Sequence record: NC_054913.1
Length of the DNA stretch: 64,000 nt
Source of the DNA: Escherichia phage F2
Strand: one strand, 5' to 3'
In this document: piece after piece, positions 32,511-59,348 of the stretch
Layout of the letters: every line of letters begins with the position of its first letter
Numbering within the stretch: position 1 is the stretch's first letter
The notes under the pieces: generated by a model
What the model was told of the DNA's origin: nothing
Databases searched by the model: none
Seen by the model: the letters and a program-made list of their open reading frames with translations, nothing else
Made by a program: the position numbers and the translations under genes

Positions 32511-33146
32511 ATGAAAACTACTCCTATTACTATCGCTATTGACGCAATCATAAAACAAGCTTCTTCTTTGGCCGCTATGGCCAAAGTAATTAGTCAAAAC
32601 CCTGCTCGTTATAATGCTATTCTAGAAACTCTTCGACGCCCAGGACTTAGTAATTATGAAAGCCGAGTAATTATTACAGGTGTTGGTAAGAATGCTAATA
32701 TTGCAACTAAAGCTTCTGAGACATTTGCTTCACTCGGTATCCCGAGTATGTACTTGAACACTGGACATTATTCTCACGGTGATGCAGGATTCATTGCGCC
32801 TAATGATGTGTTGATTCATATTAGTCGTTCTGGTAAAACTGAAGAAATGATAGGCGTGGCTAAGCATCTTAAAATGATTCGTCCGAACGTCAAACAGATT
32901 CTGTTGCATTGTAACCCGGACATTCCACAAGAATACGAAGCTCTTTTTGATTATACGTTCTGTACAGGCATCGCAGTAGAGGTTGATGAGAATTCTCTGG
33001 CTCCGACCATGTCCACTACATTGTTGTTAGCGCTTATCGATACGTTTGCTATCAACCTTTCGTCTGAACGTGGATTTACCTCTAATGACTTCCTTAAGTT
33101 CCACCCTGGCGGTGCACTAGGTGCCATGTTACGAGGCGAACAATGA
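32511..33146 (+). CDS. SIS-domain sugar-phosphate isomerase (arabinose-5-phosphate isomerase-like)
   Basis: SIS motifs VIITGVGKNANIATKA and HISRSGKTEE. Confidence 0.75.
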   Translation: MKTTPITIAIDAIIKQASSLAAMAKVISQNPARYNAILETLRRPGLSNYESRVIITGVGKNANIATKASETFASLGIPSMYLNTGHYSHGDAGFIAPNDVLIHISRSGKTEEMIGVAKHLKMIRPNVKQILLHCNPDIPQEYEALFDYTFCTGIAVEVDENSLAPTMSTTLLLALIDTFAINLSSERGFTSNDFLKFHPGGALGAMLRGEQ

Positions 33147-33327: not shown

Positions 33328-35013
33328 ATGAAAAAAGCTGTTATTCTTGGTGCTGGACTGGCAACTCGTTTGTATCCAATAACGCATCATATTCCTAAGG
33401 TGCTTGTTAACTATAAACAAGACACTATTCTGAGCAATTTGTATACAATTTATTCTGACCTTGGCGCAGATGAAATTATTGTAGTAGTTCATTCAAAATT
33501 TGCTGAAACTGTTCGAGCTTATTGTGAGCAAGAAGGGTTCAATGTGACTATTCGTACAGTTGATGAAGCGTATGGTTCTGCTTATGCTCTTGCTAAATTG
33601 CACAAAGATTTAGACGGCCATAATGTAATTGTTAACTGGTGTGATATTATTCCTGATTTTGGTTCATGGTCTTGGAATGTTAACGCAATCTATGTTAAGG
33701 GTGACGAATGTCGATATAATTTCGACGGTGAAAATATCACTAATGTAGGTTCAACAGGTGGTAATGTTGTAGGAATTTATCAGTTCAAAGACTGGGAATT
33801 CTATATGGGTTCTACTGATGAGGAAATTCATGAATACTGCAAAGGACGTGATTTCGTAGAATTCCTTTACGGCAGCGCATTCAATAAATCAGAGCTTATG
33901 AATCTAATTGATTTAGGTGATATGCCTAAACTTGAAAAAGCTCATGAAGTTCGTGAACTTAATCGTAGTTTTAATGCAGTTGAAATTGGTGAAGAAACTG
34001 TAACTAAATTCGCATTAACCGAACAGGGCCGAGCTCTTCAGAAAGATGAGATTTCATGGTATCTTAAAGTGAAATCAGATTCAGTTCCTCAGTTAGTTTC
34101 TGTTAATGAAAATAACTTTGAAATGGAACGCATTAAAGGTAAGCCGGCATTTGAATATATTAAATCCAAATCAAGTCTTGCTCGTCCACAAATTGTTGAT
34201 GCAATTTTAGATGCACTGAAATTCAGCACAGACACTTATTTTGTAAGTCCTGAAACTGTTCGTCGTGATTTCACTAAAGAATTCTATACTAAAGTTATTG
34301 ATCGTTGTGAAAGTATTCAACCATTGATTGATTCATTTGGTAAAATCACACATGTGAACTACACTAAGATCGGACGTCTGAAGCCAATGTTGAAACAAGC
34401 TTTAGAACACCTTATTCGTTATCATAACCGTTCTCAGGGACAGTACTCTGTTATTCATGGTGACCCGAACTTCAGTAATACTATGATTACTGATAACGGC
34501 GAAGTCAAGTTTATCGACCCTCGTGGATATTTTGGTGAAACCAAGATTTACGGGCCAAAATTGTATGATGAAGCTAAAGTGCTTTACGCTGTTTCAGGTT
34601 ATGATGAATTCAACGCTAATCCGACTTGGGGACAGTTTACTATTGATGAAACAACTTGTAATGTGACTATTAACATCAATCCATTAGTTTACAAATATGG
34701 AAAGATGAGTTCGTTTAACGAGTATCATCATTTGGCAGTGGCAATTATCTGGATTGCATTAGGTGGTTATTTCAAGAATAATCCACTTAAAGCGGTAGCC
34801 GCATATTATAAAGGTATGGAACTTCTGACTAAGCAATTACGTAATATGGGCCGTGTACTTCAAGACGGCTCTATTAGTTATGACGTAGCAGAACCTGTAA
34901 CGGCTACTCTGATTACAAAAAATCCTGGTAAATGGGTACTAACTGATAAAGAAACTGGTGTTTCCTATCGTCCAATCGGTGGCGATATCACTCATCAATG
35001 GGAACGAATCTAA
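33328..35013 (+). CDS. bifunctional sugar-1-phosphate nucleotidyltransferase / sugar kinase
   Basis: N-terminal GAGLATRLYPIT (RmlA-type NTP-transferase signature); C-terminal kinase-like HGDPNFSNTMI...KFIDPRG (APH/choline-kinase-like). Confidence 0.8.
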   Translation: MKKAVILGAGLATRLYPITHHIPKVLVNYKQDTILSNLYTIYSDLGADEIIVVVHSKFAETVRAYCEQEGFNVTIRTVDEAYGSAYALAKLHKDLDGHNVIVNWCDIIPDFGSWSWNVNAIYVKGDECRYNFDGENITNVGSTGGNVVGIYQFKDWEFYMGSTDEEIHEYCKGRDFVEFLYGSAFNKSELMNLIDLGDMPKLEKAHEVRELNRSFNAVEIGEETVTKFALTEQGRALQKDEISWYLKVKSDSVPQLVSVNENNFEMERIKGKPAFEYIKSKSSLARPQIVDAILDALKFSTDTYFVSPETVRRDFTKEFYTKVIDRCESIQPLIDSFGKITHVNYTKIGRLKPMLKQALEHLIRYHNRSQGQYSVIHGDPNFSNTMITDNGEVKFIDPRGYFGETKIYGPKLYDEAKVLYAVSGYDEFNANPTWGQFTIDETTCNVTININPLVYKYGKMSSFNEYHHLAVAIIWIALGGYFKNNPLKAVAAYYKGMELLTKQLRNMGRVLQDGSISYDVAEPVTATLITKNPGKWVLTDKETGVSYRPIGGDITHQWERI

Positions 35014-35399
35014 TGCACCGTGTAGAAAACATGCTTAATCTTTGTTTTGATGTCGACGATTGTATAACAGAGTGGAATAACAATCGTGATTACGTGAACT
35101 TCAAGCCAGACGTCGAAATGGTGACTGCCATTAATGCCCTGTATGATGCAGGGCATACCATAACGCTTTACACTGCTCGCGGTATGAAGTCAGTCGGTCC
35201 TGGTCGTATAGCAATTGACATTCTCCCAAGTCTGATTCAGAACTTGGCAAACATTGGATTGAAGTACCATAATTTGCTAACACATAAACCAGTATATGAT
35301 TGGATTATCGACGACAAAGCTATGCGTCCTGACGAATTCAAAGCTCTTATGAATAAAGGCGAATTCGAAACATTTAAATCATATAAACCGAATCTATAA
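35013..35399 (+). CDS. HAD-superfamily phosphatase
   Basis: Motif I FDVDDCIT; motif II TLYTARG; ATG 35013 overlaps upstream stop. Confidence 0.65.
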   Translation: MHRVENMLNLCFDVDDCITEWNNNRDYVNFKPDVEMVTAINALYDAGHTITLYTARGMKSVGPGRIAIDILPSLIQNLANIGLKYHNLLTHKPVYDWIIDDKAMRPDEFKALMNKGEFETFKSYKPNL

Positions 35400-35446: not shown

Positions 35447-36616
35447 ATGCAAAAAATGAATACCTTTAAAATCGGAACGAATTTTGATTTAGCTCTTCTT
35501 GATAAAATCGTAGAGCTCAATAAAACTTATCCTAATAGCTTGATAAACGAAGTATACGGCTCTACAAGAGAAATGGCTTTTGTAGCAGCCAGACCTGATT
35601 TTAGGCTTCCTGACGTTGACAAAAAGATGTTAGAAGATTACGTTAAACGTTGTAACGAATTAGGTATTTGCTTTAACTATACACTCAACACGATAAATCC
35701 TGGTTCAAAAAGAGAACTAGTTGAGTGGAAGAAGAAAGCTATTCAGGACTATGTTCAGTATCTTTGGTCAATAGGCGTATGGCGTATTACTATCGCTAAC
35801 CCTGTTGTTATGGAAATTGTTCGTGAAGTCAATAAAGACATTGAGATTGAAGTTTCAACAATTCTACATGTCGATGCTGTAACTCAAATCAAATACTTGC
35901 ATGACCAATATAATATCAAAAAGGTCTGCTGTGGAATTCATAAGAACCGTTCAGTTTCTTTCCTGAAGCGTGCAGCAGAGTTTTGTAATAAGAACAATAT
36001 AATATTTGAAGTTCTTGTAAATGAGTTCTGTTCTAATGCTGGTAAAGGGTATACAACACATTGTAGCTATCGTGACTCTTGCTATATTTTCCATAGCACC
36101 GATGTTACAGTAGATGATGCCAAATCCTTAAATGGATATCCAATGCAGCACTGTATTAAAGCTCGTGATACAGACCCATTTAACTGGTTGAGAACTCGTT
36201 TTGTTCGTCCTCAAGATTTGAAACTTTATAATGATATTGGTATCACTCAATTCAAAGTTTCAGGACGTACAGGTAGCACCGACTACATTTTGAAAGTTCT
36301 TGAAGCTTACGCTTCTGAAAAGTTTGAAGGTAATTTGTTGGAATTGTGGAAGCCTTTAGAGACCATTTTCACTCTTGAAAATGAGACTGAGTTTTCACAT
36401 ACGGTAAATATTGAAACCTCTTTGTTAGATGGCTTTTTAGAAAAAAGGTGGTTCAAACATCCAGATTTCGATTGTGCTAATGAAATCTGCGGGACGACGT
36501 GTACATATTGTGAAAGATATTATAAACGTCAGTTATCTAAAAATGGGTTATCAGAAAACTCTATATCTATTATTGATATAACTAACTCTGATGACGCTTT
36601 GAGGTACCCAGAATGA
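35447..36616 (+). CDS. hypothetical enzyme, Cys-rich (function unassigned)
   Basis: 389-aa ORF with GGCGAG RBS; C-terminal Cys cluster CANEICGTTCTYCERYY. Confidence 0.55.
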   Translation: MQKMNTFKIGTNFDLALLDKIVELNKTYPNSLINEVYGSTREMAFVAARPDFRLPDVDKKMLEDYVKRCNELGICFNYTLNTINPGSKRELVEWKKKAIQDYVQYLWSIGVWRITIANPVVMEIVREVNKDIEIEVSTILHVDAVTQIKYLHDQYNIKKVCCGIHKNRSVSFLKRAAEFCNKNNIIFEVLVNEFCSNAGKGYTTHCSYRDSCYIFHSTDVTVDDAKSLNGYPMQHCIKARDTDPFNWLRTRFVRPQDLKLYNDIGITQFKVSGRTGSTDYILKVLEAYASEKFEGNLLELWKPLETIFTLENETEFSHTVNIETSLLDGFLEKRWFKHPDFDCANEICGTTCTYCERYYKRQLSKNGLSENSISIIDITNSDDALRYPE

Positions 36617-36762
36617 TTTCTAGAAAAACTTTTAACCACCAACTTAACGAAGAGATTTTGACTATTAAAATTAACAGCAACGAACAAATTCTTAAAAAGG
36701 CCCTTATGGGCCTGTTTGAAACTAAAGCGGCTAAAGTGATTAAAGAACCTGTTCAATTGTAA
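36613..36762 (+). CDS. small hypothetical protein (49 aa)
   Basis: ATG overlapping upstream stop. Confidence 0.3.
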   Translation: MISRKTFNHQLNEEILTIKINSNEQILKKALMGLFETKAAKVIKEPVQL

Positions 36763-36894: not shown

Positions 36895-37611
36895 ATGGGA
36901 AAACATAACACAATGAAATATATTAAAGCCGCAGATTTTCAATCCGCATTTAAAGCTGTCAATCGTGAAATTTTAGAAAACCCGGAATTCGTTACTGATT
37001 CTCGTATTGGACGTTGTAATGAAATTGGGTCTATGACAGTAGTTGTTGATACCCCTTCATCATTCAAAATGACAGACCCACGTATTAATCGCATCTCTTA
37101 TGAATATGCTGAAGATTTCTGGAAATTTATGATTTCTGGTGGTACTGATGCAGAAGAAGCATTTAAGGCATATCCTAACGTTGCTAAATTTATTTCTAAA
37201 CCTAAATCAGATGCTTTGCCTGCAAACTTCAACACTTTCTACGGTCCACGAATTGCGGCCCAGTTACCAACTCTTCTAAAAGAACTTAAAGAAAAACCTA
37301 ACTCTCGAAGAGTTGTGTTCCAAATTCTAGAAAGTTCTGATCAGGCTTTGCTTGATTCAGACGAAACACTTGAATATCCATGTACTGACTCAGTGACTTA
37401 TTATATTCGTGATGGTAAGCTTTATACCCACTGTCATATGCGTTCTCAGAACTGTGCTGTTGTTATGCAGTTGGATTTTTATCTCCAAGGAAAATTACTT
37501 CATTATATCGCTAACGAATGTGGTGTAGAAGTTGGTGATTATACTCATACCATGGTAAGTGCCCATGTGTTTGAACGTGATTTTGATTATGTTAAAGGAT
37601 TCCTTGTCTAA
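36895..37611 (+). CDS. 42: dCMP hydroxymethylase (thymidylate-synthase fold)
   Basis: Position and conserved pattern NSRR...CTDSVTYYIRD...MRSQN...SAHVFERDF resembling T4 gp42. Confidence 0.7.
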   Translation: MGKHNTMKYIKAADFQSAFKAVNREILENPEFVTDSRIGRCNEIGSMTVVVDTPSSFKMTDPRINRISYEYAEDFWKFMISGGTDAEEAFKAYPNVAKFISKPKSDALPANFNTFYGPRIAAQLPTLLKELKEKPNSRRVVFQILESSDQALLDSDETLEYPCTDSVTYYIRDGKLYTHCHMRSQNCAVVMQLDFYLQGKLLHYIANECGVEVGDYTHTMVSAHVFERDFDYVKGFLV

Positions 37612-38510
37612 TGGCTATTTTCCGCGTACCTATCTTGAGTATGCGGTCTTATGAAACTGGACAGTATGCTATCCTTAAGGATGGCAACTTCCAACTTCAT
37701 TTGCACCGTGCTAATCCGGGTGATGTGATTACATATCCACGTAATGCATCTGATATTAAAGAATGCGAACGTCTTTTCCCAGAATTTAAGTTTGTTCCAT
37801 TATGGTATAAAGATAACGCATATAACACTCGTAAATATTTCTGGTCTGAAAATGAATTTGTGGTTGATTCATTAATTGATTATTATGATTGTGATTTTCT
37901 AATCACAGATATCACTGGATATGACGGCAATTTTGACGTAGAATTCAATTTCAATATCACTGCAGACCCTAATAAACCACGTTTTTATATTGACGAATTC
38001 TTAAAAACCGACATGTTGTCTGTTAATCGTTCACTTCAAACTACTGTGTTGAATGAACGTCAAAAAGAAGTGCTGGTTAACGCAGGTGCAGATGGTAATA
38101 AGATTATCGTAACGCAGAAAGTTATACGTCCTTCCATCATGCAGCGTCTTGTAGGTGATTTGGCTCCTATTCATCTAGATGGTATTTTTCATCCATTTCG
38201 AATTAGTGACCCGTGCTATCGTTTTGAACAAGTGGTTGAATGTGCAATTCAATTAGGTCAACCGCTTTATATAACCGATCCAAATAATAGCTTCGACAGA
38301 AATAAGTATCCTGAAGAAGCGCTGATTCGAATTTTTAAACCAACTAAAACTGAGTACTATCAAATTCTTAAAGGACGTCCGAAGATTCAATACTTCGAAA
38401 ATCCTGAAGAAGTATTCCATCCAGGTCTTGGCGAGTTCATCTACTTTAATGCTTTAATTTCTTCGCCGTATAATATACCTAAATATGAAGATGTCGTAAT
38501 CGAGGAATAA
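37611..38510 (+). CDS. hypothetical protein in beta-gt position (candidate DNA sugar transferase)
   Basis: 299-aa ORF replacing T4 beta-gt between 42 and uvsX; no recognisable beta-gt similarity. Confidence 0.5.
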   Translation: MAIFRVPILSMRSYETGQYAILKDGNFQLHLHRANPGDVITYPRNASDIKECERLFPEFKFVPLWYKDNAYNTRKYFWSENEFVVDSLIDYYDCDFLITDITGYDGNFDVEFNFNITADPNKPRFYIDEFLKTDMLSVNRSLQTTVLNERQKEVLVNAGADGNKIIVTQKVIRPSIMQRLVGDLAPIHLDGIFHPFRISDPCYRFEQVVECAIQLGQPLYITDPNNSFDRNKYPEEALIRIFKPTKTEYYQILKGRPKIQYFENPEEVFHPGLGEFIYFNALISSPYNIPKYEDVVIEE

Positions 38511-38511
38511 A

Positions 38512-39060
38512 ATGGCTAAAATTATTTTAGTAGATGGCCCGGATAATGCTGGTAAAACAACTTTCATTAATGACATAATGGAAATTAGTGAAAGATATGT
38601 AAAGATTGATTTCCCTAAACGAACAGTTGATGGACGTTTCGATGTTAAGTCTCGAAATGAAGTTGGCTGTTTCGAAACGATGTTGAATTATTTAGACCCT
38701 ACTAAGATTTATCTGTTAGACCGTGGATATATTAGTAACTGGGTTTATGGACGTATTCGACAAGATGCGGACTCGGTTCTTGACGTTTATGAACAGGATT
38801 ATGTTCGTCTTTGCCAAAACCATGATGTGTTCACAATTATTTTAACACGTAACGAAATGACTGAAAGTTTTGAAGACGACCTTATTACTTTGTCTTCATT
38901 CAGGTTTAATACAGTCATTTCGTATTTTGAAGAGTTTGCAATTCATAACGAAATCCAAACGTATCAATTACTTAATCATGATGGTGCTAACAAAGTTATA
39001 GGATTTAATGCAAGCGAACGTAATAATTTGATTACAGAAATTATCAAATGGGCTCGTTAA
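38512..39060 (+). CDS. P-loop nucleoside/nucleotide kinase-like protein
   Basis: Walker A VDGPDNAGKTT at N-terminus; 182 aa. Confidence 0.6.
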   Translation: MAKIILVDGPDNAGKTTFINDIMEISERYVKIDFPKRTVDGRFDVKSRNEVGCFETMLNYLDPTKIYLLDRGYISNWVYGRIRQDADSVLDVYEQDYVRLCQNHDVFTIILTRNEMTESFEDDLITLSSFRFNTVISYFEEFAIHNEIQTYQLLNHDGANKVIGFNASERNNLITEIIKWAR

Positions 39061-58247: not shown

Positions 58248-59348
58248 ATGAAAGTTATGTTTATCCCATCTCGTGCAGTCCCGTTTAATCCTGACCGTGT
58301 ACAAGGTGGCCTTGAAGCAGTACATTTAAATGTGTTGAAATATCTTGTGTCCATCGGCGCTGATATTGATTATATCGGCTTTGATAATGACACGTTTGGT
58401 GATTGGAAAGTTACACACCATCCTGTTGGTCATCTGACTAAATTCAGTCTAGGTATGAGTTATACTATGGCTCGTAAGATTGTTGAACTAGCCGGCATCC
58501 ATGAATACGATTTTGTTGTTACTATGGAACCGACTAAACTAACCGTTCAGGCAATTAAAGACGCAGGTCTCTCTAAAGTTCATAAGAATTTTATGGCAAC
58601 ACCATTTGAACCGGTATCTCGTGGCATTGTTCAAATTTGGGACCAGACTATTCAAATTCATAAGAATGGTGGTAAGAGTTATGCTCCTACTAAAGCCTTC
58701 CGTGAATTTGAACGCAAATATTGTTATATGACTTCAGGTCTGACTGACAAAATTGATTATGATTATTGGCGAGCAAATCCGTTGTTTGAAGCCGAAGATT
58801 ATCCGGTTATTTGTTTGAATGAGAAACCTGAAGTTCTTCCGGCGACTGATCTGATTATTAGTGCACAACGTTATGACACTAAAATGCGTCGCACTGATGT
58901 TGCTCTTGAAGCAATTAAAGCACTAGGCGAAAATGGTGTAGGATACTGTCCAAGCAAATGGGCACCACCAGCTAAATATCCTGTTATTATTGATGCTCCA
59001 CACAGTGAAATCATGGAACGTCTTAAAACAGCTAAAGCACTTATTAATACTTGTCCTGACACAGGTACAGTAGAGAATAGTTCTATTGAAGCCATCTCTA
59101 AAGGTGTCCCTGTAATCCAGTTAGTTTTTAAGGATTATCCTCATGCGACATTTGAATACGACCCAGATACTGTGCGTGTAGAAATTGATTCCTCTACTCC
59201 TAAGAAAGAAGTAGTTGCGCTTTACACAAAAGCTGTATTAGAATTCACTGATACATACGAAGCTCGAGTTAAACGTGCTGAAGCAGTATGGAAGAAGTAT
59301 AACCGAGATGCAGTTGTTGCGATGTGGGATAAAATCTTCACAGCGTAA
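58248..59348 (+). CDS. putative GT-B-fold glycosyltransferase (candidate hmC sugar transferase)
   Basis: N-terminal GT4-like pattern PDRVQGGLEAVHLNVLKYL; 366 aa; located between 39 and rIIA. Confidence 0.55.
   Translation: MKVMFIPSRAVPFNPDRVQGGLEAVHLNVLKYLVSIGADIDYIGFDNDTFGDWKVTHHPVGHLTKFSLGMSYTMARKIVELAGIHEYDFVVTMEPTKLTVQAIKDAGLSKVHKNFMATPFEPVSRGIVQIWDQTIQIHKNGGKSYAPTKAFREFERKYCYMTSGLTDKIDYDYWRANPLFEAEDYPVICLNEKPEVLPATDLIISAQRYDTKMRRTDVALEAIKALGENGVGYCPSKWAPPAKYPVIIDAPHSEIMERLKTAKALINTCPDTGTVENSSIEAISKGVPVIQLVFKDYPHATFEYDPDTVRVEIDSSTPKKEVVALYTKAVLEFTDTYEARVKRAEAVWKKYNRDAVVAMWDKIFTA

Follow-up and report, generated by a model that had tools for sequence, protein, structure and literature searches.

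In phage T4 the annotated gene order runs 43, imm.1, imm, 42, beta-gt, segA, uvsX, 40, 41, with the beta-glucosyltransferase gene (beta-gt) directly downstream of gene 42. In the window analysed here, a stretch of 64,000 nucleotides from Escherichia phage F2 (NC_054913.1), the same slot holds a 299-aa open reading frame (ORF) that has no sequence homology to beta-gt, which raises the question of what its product does. A sequence-only reading of the window had described the order 42-X-uvsX as shared with T4 and had suggested that X may be a structurally different DNA sugar transferase, for example one that adds a second sugar, or an unrelated replacement. The evidence assembled here indicates that the protein (hereafter the target) replaces beta-gt non-orthologously and that its most probable role is to put the first arabinose onto 5-hydroxycytosine (5hoC), not a second sugar onto hydroxymethylcytosine (hmC). 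The genes involved are the following.

32511..33146, plus strand: SIS-domain arabinose-5-phosphate isomerase, RB69 gp55 (Pfam SIS; PHROG 5670 'arabinose 5-phosphate isomerase', E=2e-116)
33328..35013, plus strand: 561-aa bifunctional sugar kinase and NDP-sugar pyrophosphorylase, equivalent of RB69 gp52:53 and HY126 AfhE (Pfam NTP_transferase, kinase-like C-terminal matches, PHROG 4098)
34998..35399, plus strand: HAD-type phosphatase, equivalent of RB69 gp51 and AfhF (PHROG 1238)
35447..36616, plus strand: U32-family protein, RB69 gp50, a member of the cluster (Pfam Peptidase_U32; weak NCBIfam UbiU match)
36895..37611, plus strand: ThyA-family dCMP 5-hydroxylase (5hodCMP synthase), the 'gene 42' homolog (Pfam Thymidylat_synt; function from PMC13326640)
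37611..38510, plus strand: the target, a predicted GT-B glycosyltransferase and proposed first (base-proximal, alpha) arabinosyltransferase on 5hoC, ortholog of RB69 gp46:47, DLP3 gp79 and Thanatos TH1_063
38512..39060, plus strand: 182-aa thymidylate-kinase-like (TMK-like) P-loop kinase, RB69 gp45 ortholog (PHROG 761 'thymidylate kinase', E=4e-45)
58248..59348, plus strand: 366-aa second glycosyltransferase (GT) of the RB69 gp3 type, for the second, beta-linked arabinose (E=4.7e-251 to PDB 9iqz/9ir0)

The target ORF starts with ATG, and its boundaries are exactly those first described. Its start codon overlaps the stop codon of the upstream ThyA homolog (TAATG), the kinase gene begins 1 nt past its own stop, and a GAGGA ribosome-binding site for the kinase lies within its 3' end; this overlap, spacing and internal site indicate that the hydroxylase gene, the target and the kinase gene form one translationally coupled unit. 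Scans for promoters and terminators found no more candidates than in shuffled sequence.

The ORF is a real, conserved gene. Its DNA is 100% identical in Escherichia phage PNJ-6 and 95–99% identical in about 150 other phage records, and the source phage is a Mosigvirus (RB69 group). The protein matches PHROG 3891 ('unknown function') with E=4e-156, and its homologs fall into at least 138 protein clusters at 36–99% identity. An exhaustive profile search of 1.84 billion representative proteins recovered 229 representatives of the target's own family, and no other family. Homologs are carried by 347 phage records, with hosts that include Escherichia, Acinetobacter, Klebsiella, Shigella, Serratia, Enterobacter, Proteus, Yersinia, Shewanella and Pseudomonas. 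In GenBank they are mostly labelled 'hypothetical protein' or, wrongly, 'RNA polymerase binding protein', so that a functional assignment mends an annotation gap in about 350 phage genomes.

The gene order ThyA homolog, target, 182-aa kinase, uvsX places the target in the slot of beta-gt, as the sequence-only reading had claimed and the annotated T4 genome bears out, but the kinase gene that separates the target from uvsX had been missed. Across cultured phages and metagenomes, synteny around the target is kept in 57 loci. In almost every one of these that has upstream sequence, a ThyA homolog lies directly upstream on the same strand; where none is detectable, the U32 protein directly adjoins the target homolog. 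In two such loci (L053 and L057) the ORF upstream of the module was considered as a cryptic ThyA homolog and rejected, as it encodes SSB.

The target is also the intact form of a gene that is broken in the reference genome of RB69. At the equivalent place that genome has two short ORFs, RB69p047 and RB69p046, and the record carries one extra T at gene position 545, without which a 299-aa protein about 99% identical to the target is restored. There is no substantive difference between the target and RB69 gp46:47 or Acinetobacter phage DLP3 gp79, save that the RB69 gene is split. Thomas et al. assigned no function to RB69 gp46:47 in 2018 (PMC6024577), while Lee et al. (NAR 2026, PMC13326640) concatenated and modelled the two ORFs and proposed them to be 'arabinosyltransferase 1', which adds the first arabinose onto the base; that assignment is computational. 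The description of the ORF as unassigned thus holds for most GenBank records, but not for the literature: the likely function was already published in 2026, and the assignment made here is a rediscovery. The literature (PMC13326640) is the source for the modification chemistry, the hydroxylase activity, the route to UDP-arabinofuranose (UDP-Araf) and the finding that later sugars are added on DNA, and the predicted fold, the orthology, the synteny, the phyletic pattern and the association with hydroxylase-type ThyA homologs come from the present analysis. New in this analysis are the comparison of record counts (347 versus 210), the hydroxylase signature of the neighbouring genes (44/45), the kinase fusions in both orders and the acidic isoelectric points.

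At the sequence level the target could be tied to no established enzyme family. Pfam and NCBIfam gave no match to the protein, none of 58 diverse family members (0/58) had any Pfam match at E<=1, and the family profile found nothing among all PDB sequences. Comparison of profiles with hhalign gave a probability of 0.2% against T4 beta-gt and of 0.06% against the second-glycosyltransferase family, for which a UDP-bound structure exists. The lack of recognisable beta-gt features in the sequence, noted in the sequence-only reading, is therefore upheld, and an ortholog of beta-gt was rejected in view of the missing homology and the different acceptor.

The three-dimensional shape is informative where the sequence is not. 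Structure prediction, which had been proposed as a check, was carried out and gave a model with two Rossmann-like β/α/β domains and an inter-domain cleft; on this model the target is a GT-B fold glycosyltransferase, identifiable solely by its shape. The non-transferase UDP-GlcNAc 2-epimerase family is not the best structural match to the model, and the target has no match to the Epimerase_2 profile. Nor is there a match to the NTP_transferase Pfam profile, and the modelled fold is GT-B rather than that of a GT-A-like nucleotidyltransferase. The proposal of a structurally different DNA sugar transferase is thus supported by the predicted fold, although its suggested role in adding a second sugar is not: the target most likely adds the first, and the second-sugar transferase is assigned to 58248-59348.

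Twenty-six columns are invariant across the target family. In the N-terminal (acceptor) domain the conserved residues are SMRS (10–13), KDGN (23–26), R33, Y66, R74, DITGY (100–104), NFN (113–115) and N148, and in the C-terminal (donor) domain they are F-x-PFR-x-SD (193–200), TDPN (222–225), K246, H270-P-G and an acidic residue at 275. R197, K246 and H270-P-G are invariant and position 275 is acidic (E/D) in 58/58 members, and their positions would be plausible for donor binding. Compared with T4 alpha-glucosyltransferase and retaining GT4-type enzymes (sucrose-phosphate synthase 6kih, BshA, MshA 3c4q and PimA), the target is about 60–100 residues shorter, and its family matches neither Glyco_transf_4 nor the CAZy GT4 / Pfam Glycos_transf_1 profile (0/58 at E<=1). 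The canonical GT4 E-x7-E motif is likewise not conserved: the target itself has E267-x7-E275, but position 267 varies in the family (E, K, T, R, F), so that the first Glu is lost and the second acidic residue alone is kept, preceded by the invariant H270-P-G. The variable motif and the lack of a sequence-level tie to any GT family weigh against the assignment as arabinosyltransferase.

The acceptor is indicated by the gene upstream. The ThyA homolog at 36895-37611, which had been read as gene 42, does belong to the ThyA family but is only 25% identical to T4 gp42 and all but identical to an enzyme of phage HY126 that has been crystallised (9iqc/9ir2, E=2.9e-161). Enzymes of the HY126/RB69 class are flavin-dependent and hydroxylate dCMP at C5 rather than hydroxymethylating it, and their diagnostic residue is an Asn at the position equivalent to D169 of E. 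coli ThyA (Lee et al., NAR 2026, PMC13326640). The window's ThyA homolog has this Asn whereas T4 gp42 has Asp, and the same signature is found in 44/45 non-identical ThyA homologs that adjoin target homologs. Because the 'gene 42' homolog is a dCMP 5-hydroxylase, the acceptor is expected to be 5hoC, not hmC. This agrees with the reported structure of RB69-group DNA, in which arabinose is linked directly to O5 of 5-hydroxycytosine (PMC13326640, PMC13390438); a 2018 report had placed it on hydroxymethylcytosine (PMC6024577). This assigns the window to the group with arabinosyl-5-hydroxycytosine, a matter of relevance both to phage-therapy candidates and to resistance against restriction, CRISPR and DNA-glycosylase defences.

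A coherent pathway can be proposed from these genes. The ThyA-like flavoenzyme would hydroxylate dCMP at C5 and so make the hydroxyl acceptor. UDP-D-arabinofuranose would be produced by three enzymes encoded in the same cluster as the target: the SIS isomerase, the 561-aa protein with its kinase and pyrophosphorylase activities, and the HAD phosphatase. In the published summary of these roles, the 561-aa protein makes UDP-arabinofuranose, the presumed donor, and the HAD phosphatase converts Araf-1,5-P2 to Araf-1-P (PMC13326640). In the target, the C-terminal Rossmann domain would hold the UDP-sugar and the highly conserved N-terminal domain 5hoC, and the enzyme would form an alpha ether-type glycosidic bond to O5, after which the separate GT at 58248-59348 would add the second, beta-linked arabinose. 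By NMR the base-proximal sugar is alpha-D-Araf and the second sugar is beta (PMC13326640), and an alpha base-proximal sugar would fit the target's resemblance to retaining enzymes. We infer that the target transfers arabinose, acts first and retains the anomeric configuration. The first-sugar role and the 5hoC acceptor are suggested by the genomic context, and we regard a first-sugar transferase on 5hoC as the highly probable function.

The phyletic pattern supports the order of action. Homologs of the second GT occur in 210 phage records versus 347 for the target. Mosigvirus records carry the second GT once and Acinetobacter phage records at two places each, and it was not found in the other genera that bear target homologs. 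These record counts and copy numbers mark the target as the one transferase common to all these phages. The distribution of the second GT also matches the reported numbers of sugars, RB69 DNA being di-arabinosylated, DLP3 DNA tri-arabinosylated and Thanatos DNA mono-pentosylated (PMC13326640).

Seen against known systems, the target shares with T4 beta-gt the place in the genome right after the gene-42 homolog and ahead of uvsX, the GT-B superfold and, presumptively, UDP-sugar-dependent modification of a C5-substituted cytosine; it differs in lacking sequence homology and in an acceptor other than hmC from a gp42-type hydroxymethylase. The HY126 glycosyltransferase (PDB 9iqz/9ir0, RB69 gp3 type) belongs to another family, resembles the target neither in sequence nor in profile and is less widely distributed, and gp3-type enzymes add the later, beta-linked arabinoses on DNA (PMC13326640). 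A further ortholog is TH1_063 of the Shewanella phage Thanatos, a 300-aa protein that is 47.8% identical to the target; its gene lies between those for the ThyA homolog TH1_062 and for the kinase-like TH1_064.

Thanatos also provides the experimental basis for a different function, namely that the target is a UDP-pentose pyrophosphorylase that supplies the activated sugar and does not transfer it. His-tagged TH1_063, a syntenic ortholog, yielded UDP-xylose from UTP and xylose-1-P by LC-MS/MS, and glycosylated neither DNA nor nucleotides (PMC12838424). That assay had a no-enzyme control only, a non-physiological sugar and no 5-hydroxylated acceptor (PMC12838424), and the same product could have come from a co-purifying host GalU-type enzyme or from reverse or phosphorolytic GT chemistry. 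The published nucleotidyltransferase reaction is also at odds with the modelled GT-B fold of the target, which is not the fold of sugar-1-P pyrophosphorylases, and the 561-aa protein of the cluster already has an NTP_transferase domain that the literature assigns to UDP-arabinose synthesis. Given the predicted fold, this existing enzyme and the limits of control and acceptor, the UDP-xylose activity of TH1_063 is probably a side activity or an artefact. If the target were a pyrophosphorylase, the base-proximal sugar would moreover have no transferase in Thanatos and in over 130 other phage records, and we consider this function very unlikely. A non-transferase GT-B enzyme that remodels the nucleotide sugar, such as one like UDP-sugar 2-epimerases, would share the fold and is scarcely probable. 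Both pyrophosphorylase and epimerase were rejected as the primary function.

It is also very unlikely that the target is a transferase for the second or a later sugar, or for a non-DNA acceptor. The order of action is deduced from context, and cooperative schemes do exist, since addition of the third sugar in DLP3 needed two GTs together (PMC13326640). Set against this, the target is the only GT-type gene common to all cluster-bearing phages and the only one where a gp3-type GT is missing, its gene stays close to that of the hydroxylase, which makes the site of attachment, and the number of extra arabinoses follows the copy number of the gp3-type GT, not the target (PMC13326640).

If the target is the first-sugar transferase, the level at which it acts has to be considered. 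The published working model, drawn by analogy with T4, has 5hoC in replicated DNA as the acceptor, and on our analysis this would be the favoured substrate; a mononucleotide acceptor is possible and less probable. In an explicit pre-replicative version, the enzyme arabinosylates free 5hodCMP or 5hodCDP in complex with the adjacent TMK-like kinase, which would phosphorylate the bulky glycosylated nucleotide, and the polymerase incorporates arabinosyl-5-hydroxy-dCTP. This kinase-coupled route is unlikely, its probability forming part of that given to the first-sugar function and not adding to it, and it is nonetheless a serious possibility because of the ubiquity of the kinase, the fusions in both orders and the acidic character of the family.

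The GT is fused to a TMK-like kinase in at least eight independent representatives, in the order GT::kinase in P0214, P0227, P0228, P0231, P0245, P0254 and P0257 and kinase::GT in P0236. By hhalign, the kinase domains in these fusions share homology with the family of the window's kinase (96.8%, E=2.7e-10). The kinase is part of the module at nearly all loci, including four without a detectable nearby ThyA homolog, and is absent from the 42/beta-gt region of T4. A T4 gp1-type dNMP kinase (RB69 gp159) already converts 5hodCMP to 5hodCDP (PMC13326640), so that no substrate is assigned to the TMK-like kinase; in Lee et al. the latter is a table entry without further discussion (PMC13326640). Purified single DLP3 GTs, including the target ortholog gp79, had no activity on 5hoC DNA with UDP-Araf or UDP-Arap, which favours a nucleotide acceptor but, like the negative glycosylation result for TH1_063, also counts against the first-sugar assignment itself; the authors note that their own experiments do not distinguish addition of the first arabinose to the mononucleotide from post-replicative addition (PMC13326640). 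Members of the target family are acidic throughout, with a median pI of 5.25 and a net charge of about −10, versus pI 9.05 and net charge +6 for the DNA-acting T4 beta-gt, a weak indication given that the second GT, of the DNA-acting type, has a pI of 6.3. 5-Hydroxycytosine in DNA causes mutations and is acted on by the E. coli enzymes Nth, Nei and Fpg, so that masking it ahead of incorporation would be advantageous.

Several points weigh against the precursor route. All phage DNA glycosylation characterised so far is, to our knowledge, post-replicative. Expression of the hydroxylase with the gp1-type kinase leads to 5hodC in DNA, so 5hodCTP is formed and is a polymerase substrate, and the later arabinoses are added on DNA (PMC13326640). 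Full arabinosylation of virion DNA would be hard to attain if a competing kinase route supplies unglycosylated 5hodCTP, unless there is also activity at the DNA level. Fusion partners need not catalyse adjacent steps, as eight other representatives of the target family are fusions with an N-terminal KdsC-like HAD phosphatase, and the kinase may simply render a horizontally mobile hydroxylase–kinase–GT cassette self-sufficient.

We know of no glycosylated deoxynucleotide that is made at the precursor level, and a pre-replicative first arabinose would, if true, be the first, changing the model in which phage DNA sugars are always post-replicative. It would also explain the universal extra kinase, and bare 5-hydroxycytosine need never appear in phage DNA. 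The GT–kinase fusions and the acidic character of the family are a concrete reason to test nucleotide acceptors together with the TMK-like kinase.

One of the HAD::GT fusions lies on a contig of 1.7 kb with uninformative gene context. A search with a distant member of the target family as query, seeking gp215 of Rhizobium phage RL38J1, re-found only the same Straboviridae; for that gene the literature reports the same synthase–GT–kinase triad.

The gene cluster for UDP-arabinose and 5-hydroxycytosine synthesis around the GT (the 299-aa GT-B protein proposed as the first arabinosyltransferase on 5-hydroxycytosine) includes these genes in the window:

35447-36616, + strand, U32-family protein (RB69 gp50), a member of the cluster
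36613-36762, + strand, small ORF (RB69 ORF049c equivalent) flanked by the U32 gene and the ThyA homolog
38512-39060, + strand, thymidylate-kinase-like kinase adjoining the GT

U32 proteins such as RlhA, TrhP and UbiU/V mediate O2-independent C5 or ring hydroxylation, and UbiU is a weak match of the cluster's U32-family protein. In four kinase-bearing loci, a U32 gene directly adjoins the GT homolog:

L053, 6954-8051, U32 gene
L057, 6885-7973, U32 gene
L055, U32 gene
L060, 10053-11153, U32 gene

No ThyA homolog was detectable in the fetched flanks (about 6-7 kb) of these loci. The ThyA-like hydroxylase requires O2; given this gene neighbourhood and the hydroxylating role of U32 proteins elsewhere, the U32-family protein could provide an alternative, anaerobic route to 5-hydroxycytosine. 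RB69 gp50 has been named a 'sugar or heterocycle reductase' (PMC13326640). The small ORF downstream of the U32 gene is truncated to 49 aa in the window, versus 79 aa for RB69 ORF049c.

Two further loci carry a gene of the Flavodoxin_2 type (resembling FMN-dependent NAD(P)H reductases), whose product is a plausible flavin-reducing partner of the flavin-dependent hydroxylase:

L004, 5739-6293, directly upstream of the ThyA homolog
L002, 1-123, at the cluster's upstream margin, beside the SIS (isomerase) gene

The GT-kinase-U32 module is also present beyond T4-like phages, in L053 and L057 (contigs of 49 kb and 44 kb with a DnaE-type polymerase), where it is preceded by a MazG/dUTPase_2-like gene and adjoined by DnaG primase, SSB and DnaE genes; this setting suggests a horizontally mobile cytosine-modification cassette. 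In several metagenomic phages the GT and the thymidylate-kinase-like kinase are fused, in either order (P0214, P0227, P0228, P0231, P0236, P0245, P0254, P0257); 5hodCMP is already handled by the T4 gp1-type kinase (PMC13326640). A second fusion type, with a KdsC-like HAD phosphatase domain (motif DFDGIF...GDDxYD) N-terminal to the GT domain (P0138, P0147, P0149, P0152, P0166, P0179, P0198, P0220), links the transferase to sugar-phosphate processing.

An extra T at gene position 545 in the RB69 reference genome splits the GT gene into ORF047c and ORF046c, an error of the same kind as previously reported for RB69 ORF053c/052c:

NC_004928, 24597-25497 (L059, 1298-2198), split RB69 GT gene

The GT is labelled 'RNA polymerase binding protein' in NC_018855 (HX01), PQ572755, MH051917, MK295203, MW679410 and PP660556, which looks like a propagated mis-annotation, as neither fold nor context backs it. 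The window also encodes a second glycosyltransferase:

58248-59348, + strand, 366-aa ORF (RB69 gp3 type) between the topoisomerase gene and rIIA

This ORF is near-identical to PDB 9iqz/9ir0 (phage HY126), and most records label the RB69 gp3-type GT 'hypothetical'.
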